Below the pieces are notes generated by a model. That model had not been told where the DNA came from and did not search any database. It was given only the letters and a program-made list of their open reading frames with translations. A DNA stretch of 45,519 nucleotides. Source: Candidatus Shapirobacteria bacterium. Its GTDB lineage: Bacteria > Patescibacteriota > Microgenomatia > UBA12405. Shown here piece by piece: positions 39,170 to 42,919 of this stretch. A program made the position numbers and the translations under genes. How positions within the stretch are numbered: position 1 is the stretch's first letter; every line of letters starts with the position of its first letter. The DNA is taken from positions 1-45,519 of the forward strand of contig JBAXAJ010000005.1 of the NCBI GenBank assembly GCA_037142555.1, read 5' to 3'.

Positions 39170-40306
39170 TTATTTTATCAAGTTATAAATGGCTAGAGTT
39201 TCTTTAGCGGTTTTTTGCCAACTAAAATCTTTGGAATGAATAATTCCAATTTTTGAAAGTTTATCGCGAAGATCTTTTGATTTAATAATTTTTCCGATGG
39301 CTTCACTTATATCTTGAGGTGATTTTGGATCAACTAAAAGAGCTGAATTGGCGGCTATTTCTGGAAGACAAGAAGTGTTGCTGGTAATGATTGGAGTGCT
39401 AACAGACATAGATTTGACTAGAGGCAGACCAAAGCCTTCATATAGAGATGGATATAGGAGACAAAGGGCGGCGGCGTGAATTGCGACCATGTCTTGTTCA
39501 GGAATGAAACCTAAAACTTTAATATTTTTGTTTTTAACACTAACATCGTCTCCCCAACCATATTTGCCAGTTATTGCTAGCTGAGTTTCGTCGTTAGGTT
39601 TTTTTTCTTGGAATAAATTAAAAGCTTTAATAATATTTTCAATGTTTTTTCGAGGTTCTCTGGTTCCTTGGACTAGAATAAAATCATTTAATTTATATCT
39701 TTTTTTAATGTCATCTTTTTGTTGTTCTTGAATAGTTTTTGATAATTCTAAGAATTGAGAATATTTTTCTTCAGCGGCTTCATAAACAACTTCAATTTTT
39801 TGAGGATTAATGTTTGGGAATAATTTTAATAAATCAGATTTAGTGTTTTGGGAAACACAAATGAAAGTGCTGCATTCTTTGGCTGCCCAATACATTTTGT
39901 TGGCGTGAGCTTTAATTACTTTTGGAGAATGCCAAGCTGGGTTAATGAAAGGAATTAAATCATGAACAGTAGTTATTGTTTTAGCTTTTGAGGTTGGAGC
40001 TTGAGTCCAATCTGAGGTGTGGAATAGATCGCATTTGCCGATGAAGAATTCAATTGGAATGATGTGAAGTTGATTCCAAAGAATCTGGAGAAGAGTTGGA
40101 GGAATTTTAAATTGATAGACCTCTATATTAGAGTATTGTTTTTTTAATTCAGCTATTTCGGTTGGAAGTGGGAGTCTTAGTGATGAATAAAAAAGTTTGT
40201 AAGTGTTAGTTTTGTCGATTTTAAGTAGATTTCTGACTAGATTTAGAGTGTAATCACTGACGCCAGTTTTGTAGGGAATGGAAGAAATATCAATGGCGAT
40301 AATCAT
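39170..40306 (-). CDS. GT4-family glycosyltransferase
   Basis: YEGFGLPLVKSMSVSTPIITS. GT-B layout. Confidence 0.7.
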   Translation of the reverse strand: MIIAIDISSIPYKTGVSDYTLNLVRNLLKIDKTNTYKLFYSSLRLPLPTEIAELKKQYSNIEVYQFKIPPTLLQILWNQLHIIPIEFFIGKCDLFHTSDWTQAPTSKAKTITTVHDLIPFINPAWHSPKVIKAHANKMYWAAKECSTFICVSQNTKSDLLKLFPNINPQKIEVVYEAAEEKYSQFLELSKTIQEQQKDDIKKRYKLNDFILVQGTREPRKNIENIIKAFNLFQEKKPNDETQLAITGKYGWGDDVSVKNKNIKVLGFIPEQDMVAIHAAALCLLYPSLYEGFGLPLVKSMSVSTPIITSNTSCLPEIAANSALLVDPKSPQDISEAIGKIIKSKDLRDKLSKIGIIHSKDFSWQKTAKETLAIYNLIK

Positions 40307-41271
40307 ATAGATAGTTTAGCAAGTTTTTGAATTTGTTTTCGTTTTCTTAATGTTTTTGGGATTTTAACTAAAATTTCTATTAATGTTTTTAGGAAGTCAA
40401 AAGGGAAAATAATTAAAGCTTTAATTTTATAAATTTTAATTGTTTCTCTTAAAAAATATGAAAGGTTACGGATCCTTTCTATAAAAATTTCTAAAAAATT
40501 ATCTAATATCTCTTTTGAAGAATAATTTTTAATAATTACAAAAAACCAATTTCTGAAAGATAATCTACTTCTGATATTTCTCATTTTGTTGCTTGTTCCC
40601 CCACCAAGATGATAGGAAATGGCACTAGGAATATAAAGAGTTTTGTAATTTAAATTATGGAGACGGAGGGCTAAATCGACATCTTCTTCATAAGCAAAAA
40701 AATCTTCATCAAAGAGACCAATTCTATTGAGTATGTCTTTATTGTAGATAACTAGAGCGGCGGAAGCGCCCCAGACAGATATATTAGATTTCAGGTCGTA
40801 AATTGTAGATTTGTTAAAAGTTTTTCCATTGGAGATGTTTTGGGCTTTGCCGGAATAGAAAAATTCGAGACCTTGTGACTCAAACTTGGTGCCGTCTTTA
40901 ATTAAAACTGTCCCAAAAAAAGTGGCAACTTTTGGATCTTTATTTTCTTTTATGATTGGAACAACTTTTTCAAACCAATTTTTTTCAAAAGTTAAATCAT
41001 TATTTAATAAAATCACCCATTCATATTTAGCTTTTCTGATTCCTTGATTTACAGCACCAGCGAAACCAAAATTTTTTGAATTTTGGATAATTTTTATTTT
41101 TTTAAATATTTCTTTAGATATTTCGATACTATTATCTTTAGAATTGTTATCAACCAAAATTATCTCAAAATTAACGTTTTTTACTTCTTTAATAGAGTTG
41201 ATTAATGAGTTTAGACAATCTGAAATAAATAAGGCACCGTTGTAGTTTGGGATTACTACCGAGAAATTCAT
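40303..41271 (-). CDS. GT2-family glycosyltransferase
   Basis: FSVVIPNYNG...LVDNNSKDNS...GFAGAVNQG...LLNND. Confidence 0.7.
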   Translation of the reverse strand: MNFSVVIPNYNGALFISDCLNSLINSIKEVKNVNFEIILVDNNSKDNSIEISKEIFKKIKIIQNSKNFGFAGAVNQGIRKAKYEWVILLNNDLTFEKNWFEKVVPIIKENKDPKVATFFGTVLIKDGTKFESQGLEFFYSGKAQNISNGKTFNKSTIYDLKSNISVWGASAALVIYNKDILNRIGLFDEDFFAYEEDVDLALRLHNLNYKTLYIPSAISYHLGGGTSNKMRNIRSRLSFRNWFFVIIKNYSSKEILDNFLEIFIERIRNLSYFLRETIKIYKIKALIIFPFDFLKTLIEILVKIPKTLRKRKQIQKLAKLSI

Positions 41272-41723
41272 AGTGGGTTTGGTAGTTGGATTATATCGCC
41301 GATTTTTAGATTTAATTTTTGAGAATCGTTAATATTTAATTCAAGGACATAGAGAGCTGGAGTTTCGTTTTGATAGATTTTTTGAGAATTATTAGTTTCA
41401 GTCACATTTTTGATGTCAACGACTTTTCCATTTTTATCAAGCCAAATCATGTCAAGAGGAATCATGGTGTCTTTCATCCAAAAAGGCAGTTTAGTCTCAA
41501 ATCCAAAGACAAAAAGCATTCCACAATTTGAACAAAGTTTTTCTCTTTTTGATAGACCTTTAATTTTTTGAGAAGTTGTTTTGGCTAGTTCAACTTTATA
41601 GTTTGTTTCATTAATTTTAATGTTAATGAAATTAGAGGTTGGCATGTAGAAGAACAGGCGCCAAATGAGAACAATGAAGATTATCAAAGGGAAAACTATG
41701 ATTAAGATAATATTTTTTGGCAT
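41268..41723 (-). CDS. DUF192-family protein with an N-terminal TM/signal anchor
   Basis: GLSKREKL...GMLFVF......FWMKDTMIPLDMIWLD..GKVV fits the DUF192 pattern. Confidence 0.6.
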   Translation of the reverse strand: MPKNIILIIVFPLIIFIVLIWRLFFYMPTSNFINIKINETNYKVELAKTTSQKIKGLSKREKLCSNCGMLFVFGFETKLPFWMKDTMIPLDMIWLDKNGKVVDIKNVTETNNSQKIYQNETPALYVLELNINDSQKLNLKIGDIIQLPNPL

Positions 41724-42919
41724 ATTTTTTCTCCTACTCTATTCCAAGTATAGTTATTTTTAACATAATTAAAAGCACTTTGACCCATTTGCTCTGTTTT
41801 TTTAGGGTTCTTAATAAGATATTCAATTTTTTTAGTTAAGTCTTGTTGATTATCAGTTTTGAATGTCAAGCCTCCTTTTGATTTATTAACTAATTCTTGT
41901 AGAGCTGGAATGTCGCTGGTTATGACGGCTTTTTTTCTGGCCCAGGCTTCAATTAAGACTAGACCAAAACTTTCTTGAACTGATGGTAGAACTAGAAAAG
42001 TGCAATTGTCGATTAATTTAACTAAATCTTTTTGAGCAAAAGAAAAATTAAATTTTATTTTTGATCTAATTTTTGGATCAAGTGATTTAACTAATTTTTC
42101 AATTTGAGGATAGAAGAGAGTTTTTTGACCAGCAATAGTTAAATCCACCCCTAACCCCTCCTTTGACGAAAGGAGGGGAATATTTTTTTGGATATCAGAG
42201 AATGATTTGATTAGAAGATCAACACGTTTGTGGGAAGATAGAGAGCCGATGAAGAGTATATTAAATCCACCCCTTAATCCCCTCCTTTGACTTAAAGGAG
42301 GGGAAATTAGAAAATCTTGGTCGATGCCGTTGCCGGCGAGGATGATTTTATTTGAACTAACTTTTAATTCTTTTTCGAAATAACTTTTTTCATATTCAGT
42401 TAAAACCCAGAGGTAATCTGCCTTTTTTAAGGCATTAATTAGAGGTTTTTGGTGAAAATCGGAATCTGTTTGATGGAAAGAAGAATTGATGAGTAATTTT
42501 GCTTTGGTTATTTTTTTAAAAAATTGGGCATAAAGAATTATGGTGGTTGGGAGTGGTCCGGCGATGATTAAATCTGGTTTAAATTTTATGATTTGAATGG
42601 TGGCTTTTAAAAAAGGAATAAATTTAAAGATTGGGCCTTTTTGGAGAACTTTTAATAAATCTTGATTTATAAATAGATTTAGAAGTTTTAGAGGTTTCCT
42701 TAATAATGTATAGACAGAGAGTTTGATGAAACCCTTCCTAAATCCTTCCCTTGACAGGGCAGGATTTTTTTTGACGAAGTCGTCGGTGCTGGAACAGTCG
42801 GAACTTAGATAGAGAGTTTGGTGTTTTTGTGATTCAAAATATTGGCCGAGTTTGTAGATAACTTTTGAGCCGCCATCGATGGCGGGAGGGAAAATATGAC
42901 TTAATAAAAGTATTTTCAT
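41702..42919 (-). CDS. GT4-family glycosyltransferase carrying three in-frame palindromic insertions
   Basis: MKILLLSHIFPPAIDGG, FNILFIGSLSSHKRVDLL, QESFGLVLIEAWARKKAVITS. GC-rich hairpin elements encode PALSREGFRKG, PPLSQRRGLRGG and PLLSSKEGLGV. Confidence 0.75.
   Translation of the reverse strand: MKILLLSHIFPPAIDGGSKVIYKLGQYFESQKHQTLYLSSDCSSTDDFVKKNPALSREGFRKGFIKLSVYTLLRKPLKLLNLFINQDLLKVLQKGPIFKFIPFLKATIQIIKFKPDLIIAGPLPTTIILYAQFFKKITKAKLLINSSFHQTDSDFHQKPLINALKKADYLWVLTEYEKSYFEKELKVSSNKIILAGNGIDQDFLISPPLSQRRGLRGGFNILFIGSLSSHKRVDLLIKSFSDIQKNIPLLSSKEGLGVDLTIAGQKTLFYPQIEKLVKSLDPKIRSKIKFNFSFAQKDLVKLIDNCTFLVLPSVQESFGLVLIEAWARKKAVITSDIPALQELVNKSKGGLTFKTDNQQDLTKKIEYLIKNPKKTEQMGQSAFNYVKNNYTWNRVGEKICQKILS
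42144..42178. repeat. GC-rich palindromic element E1
   Basis: tccacccctaa + cccctccttt-gacg-aaaggagggg (perfect 10-bp stem at 42155-42164/42169-42178), followed by aataTTTTTTT on the + strand. Confidence 0.9.
42266..42303. repeat. GC-rich palindromic element E2
   Basis: tccaccccttaat + cccctccttt-gactt-aaaggagggg (perfect 10-bp stem at 42279-42288/42294-42303). About 90% identical to E1. Confidence 0.9.
42731..42767. repeat. GC-rich palindromic element E3 (diverged family member)
   Basis: acccttcct + aaatccttccct-tgac-agggcaggattt (12-bp stem with one mismatch), whose 3' arm runs into a T8 tract (42765-42772) on the + strand. Confidence 0.8.

Follow-up and report, generated by a model that had tools for sequence, protein, structure and literature searches.

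Introduction

What keeps three short GC-rich segments, each translated in a different reading frame, inside a single protein-coding gene of an AT-rich bacterium? The question is raised by contig JBAXAJ010000005.1 of a Candidatus Shapirobacteria bacterium (assembly GCA_037142555.1), a member of the Candidate Phyla Radiation (CPR), of which positions 1 to 45,519 were analysed; this whole stretch (45.5 kb, 32% GC) is called the window below. The segments, named E1, E2 and E3, lie in the gene for a GT4 glycosyltransferase, and a sequence-only reading of the locus had described them as palindromic elements resembling those that colonise genes of Rickettsia. We find that each of them carries a third arm, and we consider it likely that they are dispersed repeats with the design of a class II intrastrand triplex motif, copied or homogenised by virtue of a fold of single-stranded DNA (ssDNA), whose coding copies are tolerated in protein loops.

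Results

Three-armed elements in a glycosyltransferase gene

The host gene has 492 homologues, the best named of which are GT4 proteins of Candidatus Shapirobacteria. The three GC-rich islands lie where the sequence-only reading had placed them, and in each of them the order on one strand is a pyrimidine (Y) arm, a loop, a purine (R) arm, a 3-nt loop and an arm of G, A and T that mirrors the purine arm. The features are as follows.

41702-42919, minus strand: GT4 (GT-B) glycosyltransferase gene, 405 aa, an open reading frame (ORF) matching Pfam Glycos_transf_1 (E=5.6e-28)
42141-42178, minus strand: E1, class II intrastrand triplex motif, 38 nt, aa 248-260 (PLLSSKEGLGVDL), frame offset 0
42169-42178, minus strand: E1 Y arm, CCCCTCCTTT
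42165-42168, minus strand: E1 loop 1, cgtc
42155-42164, minus strand: E1 R arm, AAAGGAGGGG
42152-42154, minus strand: E1 loop 2, tta
42141-42151, minus strand: E1 third (reverse-Hoogsteen) arm, GGGGTGGATTT, mirror of the R arm with A as A or T
42263-42304, minus strand: E2, class II intrastrand triplex motif, 41-42 nt, aa 206-219 (SPPLSQRRGLRGGF), frame offset 1
42294-42304, minus strand: E2 Y arm, 11 nt
42289-42293, minus strand: E2 loop 1, aagtc
42278-42288, minus strand: E2 R arm, 11 nt
42275-42277, minus strand: E2 loop 2, tta
42264-42274, minus strand: E2 third arm, 11 nt
42729-42764, minus strand: E3, class II intrastrand triplex motif of another sequence family, aa 52-64 (NPALSREGFRKGF), frame offset 2
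42756-42764, minus strand: E3 Y arm
42752-42755, minus strand: E3 loop 1, gtca
42743-42751, minus strand: E3 R arm
42740-42742, minus strand: E3 loop 2, ttt
42731-42739, minus strand: E3 third arm

Read on the minus strand, E1 is CCCCTCCTTT cgtc AAAGGAGGGG tta GGGGTGGATT(T), with 10/10 Watson-Crick pairs and 10/10 allowed triads; the chance of finding a third arm of this type within 25 nt of the hairpin is about 1e-4. E2 reads TCCCCTCCTTT aagtc AAAGGAGGGGA tta AGGGGTGGATT, with zero mismatches in its 11-nt arms (10/10 pairs and 10/10 triads in a 10-nt register), and E3 reads TCCTGCCCT gtca AGGGAAGGA ttt AGGAAGGGT, with 8/9 pairs, a central G.A mismatch and 9/9 triads. The hairpins reported earlier are thus real as far as their paired arms go, but each element runs about 14 nt past the hairpin into the third arm, which had been missed (its 'tccacccc' part had been listed and left uninterpreted). 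Nor is E3 the diverged or decayed copy for which it had been taken; it is well formed and represents another sequence family, its 9-nt arms having only that one central mismatch.

The frame offsets of 0, 1 and 2, counted from the 10-nt arm common to E1 and E2 (the 9-nt arm for E3), bear out the observation that the elements are translated without stops and in different frames. Their peptides are PLLSSKEGLGVD, SPPLSQRRGLRGGF and NPALSREGFRKGF, respectively, and the cccctccttt arm is indeed read as P-L-L in E1 and as (S)-P-P-L in E2. The exact hairpin CCCCTCCTTT-N4/5-AAAGGAGGGG occurs twice in the window against 0 expected from 100 shuffles, only three strong GC-rich hairpins exist there, two of them being E1 and E2, and a relaxed triplex-motif finder run over the whole 45.5 kb returned exactly three matches, namely E1, E2 and E3.

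Folding energies from ViennaRNA, which cover the hairpin part alone and not the triplex, are -10.8, -11.7 and -9.8 kcal/mol for E1, E2 and E3 as DNA (z-scores -4.1, -3.6 and -3.7) and -16.8, -19.0 and -14.6 kcal/mol as RNA (z-scores only -1.8 to -2.1). The elements are flanked by AAATATT, CTAATTT and AAAAAAAAT on the 5' side and by TTAACT, TAATAT and TTCATC on the 3' side (E1, E2 and E3 in this order). At gathering thresholds, Rfam recognised no family in the window, and eight element-bearing loci gave chance-level matches only.

An AlphaFold2 model of the GT4 protein (mean predicted local distance difference score, pLDDT, 79.7; predicted template-modelling score, pTM, 0.78) has the expected two Rossmann-like halves, and all three elements fall in its loops or low-confidence segments: E3 within a disordered stretch (aa 41-78), E2 within the inter-domain linker just before strand 219-226 (NILFIGS), and E1 within the loop preceding strand 258-265. 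The model thus agrees with the earlier placement of the elements in loops before beta-strands. The elements are not an assembly artefact, because a near-identical contig from another sample (L248; 13 mismatches in 13.8 kb) has the same three.

A mirror rule for the third arm

The same architecture recurs in two collections, one searched at one genome per species with a hairpin-only pattern and the other, of metagenomes, with a hairpin-plus-tail pattern; each yielded at least 120 loci. Among the matches listed, those of the hairpin-only pattern span Prevotella, Alistipes, Thiothrix, Acinetobacter, Dehalococcoidales, Saccharibacteria and Shapirobacteria. Most matches of this genome scan carry, 1-5 nt after the hairpin, the tail GGGG[T/A]GG[A/T]TT, which is the mirror of the purine arm AAAGGAGGGG with A rendered as A or T. 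We read this tail as a third strand because it fits the antiparallel purine-motif rule of G*G-C, A*A-T and T*A-T triads.

At the 120 loci listed for the hairpin-only pattern, a perfect mirror arm accompanies 86 of 145 hairpins and one matching at >=90% accompanies 107 of 145, as against a perfect direct repeat at 7 of 145. Hairpins with other arms that had never been selected for, picked up in the fetched loci and comprising at least 25 distinct arm sequences, behave alike, with a perfect mirror arm at 180 of 237 versus a perfect direct repeat at 19 of 237; examples of arm and mirror are AAAGGGAGA/AGAGGGATT, AAGAGGGA/AGGGAGAT, AAGGGGGAG/GAGGGGGAT and GGGAGAGGGGGA/AGGGGGTGAGGG. In a control for position, perfect mirror matches numbered 355 downstream versus 8 upstream of the hairpin.

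The rule can also be followed at one orthologous position. At the E2 site, GT4 orthologue P0015 has CCCCGCCCT gtca AGGGAGGGG tta GGGGAGGGT and orthologue P0067 has CCCCGTCTT gtga AAGAAGGGG tta GGGGAAGAT; the two have loop 2 and a central G.A mismatch in common and differ at two arm positions, each of which is changed in all three arms. Such a three-way change would be expected from selection on a triplex, or from conversion by pre-adapted copies. We rejected the idea that a conserved tail attests common descent across phyla, since under the triad rule the arm dictates the tail, and copies that share an arm in Prevotella, Acinetobacter and CPR bacteria can resemble one another by convergence.

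As a separate observation, loop 2 of many motifs, between the purine and the third arm, itself contains an additional small GC hairpin (for example CCGGtttaTCCGG, CCCCGCagcaGCGGGG and TGTCTCGCaacaGCGAGACA); motifs of this kind are:

L123, 5560-5605
L126, 10799-10847
L124, 1360-1403
L147, 2266-2311
L099, 7483-7535

Relation to known repeats

As judged from arm order, loop lengths and triads, E1 to E3 are class II intrastrand triplex motifs, that is, a known design but not the sequence family of its E. coli examples. The design was defined under this name by Holder et al. (2015, NAR 43:10126; PMC4666352), and had first been seen as Escherichia coli BoxC and as 'potential intrastrand triplex' (PIT) elements (Hoyne & Maher 2000, 2002, cited in PMC4666352). 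All three elements have the class II order of Y arm, R arm and 3' reverse-Hoogsteen arm on one strand, and their dimensions (E1, stem 10 and loops 4/3; E2, stem 11 and loops 5/3; E3, stem 9 with one mismatch and loops 4/3) lie within the limits of the ITxF definition, which allow loops of 1-6 nt and stems of 6-15 nt, a single mismatch being tolerated in stems of 7 nt or more (PMC4666352). Only C-G*G, T-A*A and T-A*T triads occur in them, with the third strand antiparallel, and they are repeated above chance, as the shuffles of the window and the numbers of loci in the two collections attest.

The best-studied relative is the E. coli motif TMECO, with consensus CCCTCNCCC-N3-6-GGGNGAGGG-N3-GGGNGAGGG and a TTA second loop in type A; as an oligonucleotide it forms a very stable ssDNA triplex by circular dichroism (CD) and nuclear magnetic resonance (NMR), with a melting temperature of 70-82 C, it has no promoter or terminator activity, and triplex-motif loci are unusually unstable or rearranged between E. 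coli strains (PMC4666352). E1 to E3 share with it the three-arm order, the triad alphabet, the arm length (9-11 nt here versus 9 nt), a first loop of 3-6 nt and a 3-nt second loop (the TTA of E1 and E2 being that of type A), as well as a tolerated central mismatch (E3), a dispersed multi-copy distribution and a tie to locally variable sequence. They differ from it in arm sequence, the TMECO pattern matching nowhere in the window or in any of the 248 fetched loci, and in host, which here is a CPR bacterium of 32% GC and not a proteobacterium. Furthermore, many arms here are asymmetric, unlike those of TMECO, so that the mirror (antiparallel) rule is seen directly; variants with the second hairpin, of 10-23 nt, in loop 2 depart from the published design and would be missed by ITxF with its loops of 1-6 nt; and, unlike TMECO and PIT elements, which are intergenic relative to neighbouring ORFs, E1 to E3 lie in frame inside coding sequence.

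Other repeats are related in behaviour rather than in kind. Those of Methanomicrobiaceae, G-rich/C-rich sequences that switch between triplex and G-quadruplex (G4) in vitro, are likewise short and interspersed and form a GC hairpin with an antiparallel G-rich third strand in vitro, but they are class I-like (G-rich 5', C-tract 3'), archaeal and reported from non-coding regions only (PMC8044849). Rickettsia palindromic elements (RPEs; Ogata et al. 2000, summarised in PMC10969869), to which the elements had originally been likened together with repetitive extragenic palindromic (REP) sequences and miniature transposable elements with inverted repeats (MITEs), do look selfish in the same way, sitting in frame in unrelated genes, housekeeping ones included, at fold-compatible positions of a reduced AT-rich genome. 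They are, however, Rickettsia-specific and about 100-150 bp long, each family encoding a conserved peptide in one frame (PMC10969869), whereas the elements here are 36-42 bp long, are translated in any of the three frames and in either orientation, and follow the plan of a triplex and not of a palindrome. In-frame insertion at tolerant positions is thus a behaviour in common with RPEs, not a sign of membership; what does not hold of the original comparison is that the elements are plain palindromes or members of the RPE or MITE families, for they are three-armed motifs.

REP sequences and their doublets (REPINs) are likewise GC-rich and structured, 20-40 bp long, present in many copies and often paired in inverted orientation (compare the Prevotella copies below), but a REP is a palindrome of two arms that carries a GTAG or CGTC tag at one end, has a cognate REP-associated tyrosine transposase (RAYT) and is extragenic by definition (PMC2817692, PMC3116915). 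Neither end tag was found in the flanks of E1 to E3, CGTC occurring only as loop 1 of E1. The GC clusters or double-hairpin elements of fungal mitochondria offer another parallel, being small GC-rich mobile elements of AT-rich genomes that can sit in frame in genes; they differ in being organellar and hairpin-only, and are not known to have a mirror third arm.

No account of copies placed in frame within coding sequence, or of hairpin or palindromic inserts of this kind in CPR bacteria (Patescibacteria), came up in the literature searches, and a text search for the arm sequences returned primers and unrelated sequences only. The known precedent, in both the TMECO and the methanogen papers, describes intergenic copies only (PMC4666352, PMC8044849). 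In-frame coding colonisation in Candidatus Shapirobacteria and similar low-GC contigs looks new, as do the GT4 loop hotspot of four to five sites, the loop 2 variants with a nested hairpin and the three-way covariation at an orthologous site.

Turnover of elements in the GT4 loops

An alignment of 35 GT4 orthologues (62-76% identical) reveals a well-conserved protein that becomes hypervariable in four to five places, namely following aa ~50, ~135, ~205 and ~245, where the elements were analysed, and in a short stretch near aa 85. The gene belongs to a conserved polysaccharide cluster (LPG_synthase_TM / GT4 / DUF192 / GT2) adjoining the cell-division/cell-wall (dcw) cluster, and its synteny is kept in L121-L127 and L248. 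When the window and seven fetched orthologous loci with conserved synteny were aligned by codons, the E1 site proved to have nearly the same 38 nt, at the same codon position, in P0006, P0038, P0067 and the window itself; P0002 and P0015 have different GC-rich elements there, and P0034 and P0004 a short AT-rich sequence. The site at aa ~135 is empty in the window and is occupied by a 41-nt E2-like element in P0015 and by a different one in P0038 and P0067. E3 is identical or 1 nt off in P0002 and P0015, and decayed in P0004. The segments are thus lineage-variable, some orthologues lacking them and others having different elements at the same sites.

Conservation acts on the DNA and not on the peptide, as the sequence-only reading had surmised: besides being read in three frames, the element nucleotides are 89-100% identical among orthologues, versus 53-65% at third codon positions elsewhere in the gene. 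The rise in identity is restricted to the element and does not extend into the flanks, and like peptides encoded by unrelated codons were not seen in the eight loci. We also rejected the possibility that E1 had come in with a longer recombined stretch of the gene, since flank identity is no higher in pairs of orthologues that carry E1 than in pairs that lack it. Occupancy is patchy on a neighbour-joining tree of the orthologues; with peptides as a proxy, at least one site is occupied in 54 of 120 orthologues, and three or four sites in 13 of 120.

Some side observations concern the same loops. Two to three tandem elements stand at one site (alignment columns ~258-300) in P0079, P0114, P0050 and P0084, for example SPLEKREKLLTPCPACPPKWRVKGRVREGF, giving inserts of up to ~40 aa, and KSTPHPVKGGDGGGF of P0003 looks like an antisense-type tail joined to a sense-type motif. 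The neighbouring GT2 gene (40303-41271, minus strand) has at 40775-40812 of the window an AT-rich segment, NKSTIYDLKSNIS, where relatives have a triplex motif, TPSLSKEGVGGGL, of the same length and unrelated; the motif is present in L121, L124 and L126 and decayed in L122. We rejected the view that the AT-rich segment is itself a decayed motif, as it has no positional similarity to the motif of the relatives, which makes it a replacement. Its 'STIY[DN]L..SNIS' peptide recurs at triplex-motif sites of GT4 in P0016, P0008, P0004, P0054 and P0021, and such AT-rich segments may represent a second cassette family using the same loop sites.

Copies beyond the GT4 gene

On other contigs the motif occurs in coding as well as intergenic DNA. 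Contigs of at most 40% GC (669 kb) hold 144 perfect motifs, of which 97 are noncoding, 20 ambiguous and 27 in ORFs of at least 150 aa, ORF length serving as a proxy for coding status outside the GT4 loci; 14 of the coding copies are sense and 13 antisense, in all frames. On related contigs the other host genes include TsaD (two copies), PheT, a TraG/VirB4-like ATPase, a Wzy-type ligase and GT2.

Identical 38-41-mers are found at non-homologous sites of other Shapirobacteria contigs, both intergenic and coding; one 41-mer, for instance, is the same, loops included, in an intergenic region of L121 (7711) and inside the GT4 gene of L126 (10431). Because identical 41-mers stand at non-homologous sites, some process must copy or homogenise the repeats. 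In Prevotella and Alistipes the same design is abundant and mostly intergenic. A phage origin was rejected on the finding of 0 matches to the hairpin or the hairpin-plus-tail pattern in 2.9 million viral contigs.

Two further points were noted along the way. In Prevotella/Prevotellaceae, motifs occur as inverted pairs 130-250 bp apart (L031 852/981, L032 2605/2844, L024 3806/4051, L072 3924/4090), which recall doublets of the REPIN or bacterial interspersed mosaic element (BIME) kind and the E. coli 'palindromic TM' arrangement. In low-GC loci of at least 4 kb, the triplex-forming strand is the local C>G strand for 65 motifs and the G>C strand for 33, with 18 at weak skew, in a count of non-independent copies made without gene calls; in the window it is the C>G strand, which is the coding one. 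This strand bias could reflect the orientation of replication or of transcription.

Discussion

A model for the persistence of the elements

The molecule that matters would be ssDNA exposed in replication, repair or transcription, rather than RNA or protein. In the cell, the third arm would fold back antiparallel on the purine arm through G*G-C, A*A-T and T*A-T triads, and repeats able to do so would multiply, or be homogenised, via some copy or gene-conversion process. Most copies are intergenic; those that land in genes would persist only if they are in frame, free of stops and located in tolerant surface loops. The four to five GT4 loops would then be sites at which elements keep to one orientation and are exchanged, reshaped by three-way compensation or left to decay, and it is because of this turnover that the loops are hypervariable between orthologues. 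The peptides rich in Gly, Pro and Arg would be by-products and presumably neutral.

A more far-reaching version of the model, which we put forward tentatively and hold to be possible rather than probable, is that the intrastrand triplex motifs of CPR bacteria may be self-maintaining DNA structures that colonise genes in frame and are conserved for the triplex fold itself, rather than just unstable junk, so that protein loops would become long-lived exchangeable cassettes; the coordinated change of all three arms at an orthologous coding site would be the sign of it.

Several observations weigh against the reading of E1 to E3 as tolerated copies of a dispersed triplex repeat. The triplex of E. 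coli has been detected neither in duplex DNA nor in vivo (PMC4666352). In the eight GT4 orthologues, 15 of 15 motifs are in sense orientation and the frame is nearly fixed per site even though arm families differ, and such uniformity would fit long-term maintenance or conversion better than repeated random insertion, thereby leaving room for a function in the host. Nor did any two very close relatives turn out to differ in having and lacking an element, so that no insertion event was seen from which the signature of a target site might be derived. The model does not account for the concentration in one gene: 3 of the 3 copies in the window fall within a gene that makes up 2.7% of it, and 7 of the 13 strict hairpins across 141 kb of syntenic loci lie in GT4. 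Finally, the assignment of copies to coding sequence outside the GT4 loci depends on the ORF-length proxy.

Alternative explanations

The copying itself could conceivably be the work of a transposase. The elements would then be miniature elements of the REP/REPIN-RAYT, IS200/IS605-type palindrome-associated transposable element (PATE), MITE or RPE-like kind, with the third arm being part of an ssDNA recognition site and the transposase gene located in another part of the genome. Folded ssDNA is what HUH transposases act on, which counts for this explanation, and identical copies at unrelated sites as well as the REPIN/BIME-like inverted pairs of Prevotella would be accounted for; the RPEs provide a parallel for in-frame colonisation of genes (PMC10969869). 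Yet E1 to E3 have no GTAG tag beside them, and neither terminal inverted repeats nor a duplicated target site is evident there. Inverted repeats and duplications are not evident either at the clean filled/empty site at aa ~135, where orthologues are only ~70% identical and short duplications could hide, and TTAGTT-like words, which flank some intergenic copies, were discarded as a target-site duplication, being inconsistent and absent from E1 to E3. No transposase, RAYT and Y1 types included, was seen among the ORFs of 1-22 kb or the gene calls of ~31.7-45.5 kb of the window, nor was one linked to E. coli BoxC/PIT found in the literature (PMC4666352). A recognition site would need no full-length mirror covarying over at least 25 arm sequences and many phyla. 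We consider a transposase-driven origin unlikely.

Alternatively, the host itself could keep the elements as programmed sites of instability or recombination that diversify the loops of surface-polysaccharide glycosyltransferases by cassette exchange or a contingency mechanism. It is certainly suggestive that the same four to five loop sites are filled by different families, always in sense and nearly always in the same frame, that occupancy of the tree is patchy, that three-way compensatory changes keep the design in place, and that a similar site in the GT2 neighbour has the motif in relatives and an unrelated cassette of the same length in the window; in E. coli, triplex motifs are tied to local instability (PMC4666352). 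However, the same elements sit in the housekeeping genes TsaD and PheT, where diversification has no obvious use, most copies are intergenic, any effect of loop variants on enzyme specificity is purely hypothetical, and selfish upkeep by gene conversion gives the same pattern. Host-kept diversification thus strikes us as quite unlikely.

An action at the level of mRNA, which had been hinted at in the sequence-only reading, is in our view improbable. The hairpins would sequester the Shine-Dalgarno (SD)-like AAAGGAGG by an anti-SD-like arm, with ribosome pausing at domain boundaries or internal initiation at the GTG of E1 as the outcome, and it is true that they fold as RNA too, that E2 coincides with the inter-domain linker while a strand follows immediately on E1, and that the GTG is in frame, 8 nt after GGAGG. 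But their z-scores as RNA fall short of those as DNA, that GTG is GTA in P0038 and P0067, and other families occupy the same sites without any SD-like sequence (for example AGGGAGA or AAGAAGGGG). The design is moreover common, and mostly intergenic, in Prevotella and Alistipes, and Bacteroidota rarely use SD sequences. Furthermore, the third arm obeys the purine-motif rule, and purine-motif triplexes are reported not to form in RNA (PMC4666352). The T runs that had been likened to terminators on the opposite strand fare no better: only E1 scores as terminator-like, with 1 found versus 1.1 expected; its T run corresponds to lysine/asparagine codons and is missing from orthologues with the same element, and that of E3 is also present in orthologues without the element.

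Selection on the peptide as a flexible Gly/Pro/Arg loop, or folding of the G-rich strand into a G-quadruplex instead of a triplex, is highly improbable: the peptides are indeed hydrophilic, rich in glycine and located in loops, GGAGGGGTTAGGGGTGG has four G runs, and related repeats of archaea can change in vitro from triplex to G4 and back (PMC8044849), but one and the same DNA is translated into a different peptide in each of the three frames and again in antisense copies (KSTPNPSF, NPPLTPPL), synonymous positions inside the elements are nearly invariant, four G runs are missing from many families that follow the mirror rule (AAAGGGAGA...AGAGGGATT and AAGAGGGA...AGGGAGAT, for instance), and the NMR of TMECO is that of a triplex, not a G4 (PMC4666352).

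Implications

BoxC, PIT and TMECO repeats have been known for more than 20 years, with a function and a copying mechanism still lacking, and have been treated as intergenic curiosities. Here the same design thrives in tiny AT-rich CPR genomes, sits in essential genes without breaking them and reoccupies the same protein loops. Taken as a signature of selection on a three-stranded fold, or of conversion by copies already adapted to it, the change of all three arms at one orthologous site provides a comparative handle on triplex DNA in the cell, much as pair covariation does for RNA.

The elements also explain a class of odd low-complexity inserts, rich in Gly, Pro and Arg, that upset alignment, domain calling and structure prediction of CPR proteins, and annotators should bear in mind that such inserts reflect DNA biology and not protein features. 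The TsaD ORF of L220 shows how triplex inserts fragment domain calls in CPR proteins: it has two antisense motifs, giving the peptides KPTPSPSLEERRGKN and NPSKSTPNPSFDERRGKQ, and its Pfam domain match is split into three stretches. If the motifs were truly self-maintaining structures, they would represent the first case of a non-B DNA structure, rather than a protein or an RNA, being the selected unit inside coding sequence, and would offer a natural system in which to find the machinery that copies BoxC/PIT-type repeats.

Other observations

The PheT protein of L154, itself a motif host, has a Pfam Aminoglyc_resit match (nucleotidyltransferase-like, E=5.9e-07) at aa ~516-580, before its B5 domain at aa 658-690, and this segment looks like an inserted domain. 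The third strong GC hairpin of the window (AAATCCCGCaatcGCGGGATTT, 1697-1718) is followed by a T run on the minus strand and lies just downstream of rpmA (L27, 1722-2051, minus strand); it resembles an ordinary intrinsic terminator, not a triplex motif. Positions 1-122 of the window, upstream of the signal peptidase gene, are taken up by a GC-rich 57-bp tandem repeat (2.1 copies, 98% identical) with the unit AACAACCTAATAACCAACTGACCCTCCTTCGCTGAAGCTACGGACGGGCAAAGGCCA, which has CCCTCC...GGACGGG and an inner GCTGAAGC hairpin and does not obey the triplex rule; it lies at the very edge of the window and recalls the extended compound elements of L134, L142 and L238. Lastly, positions 1809-2930 of L248, 3.6 kb past the end of the window, encode a 373-aa protein with Pfam Collagen repeats, which adjoins an epimerase gene.

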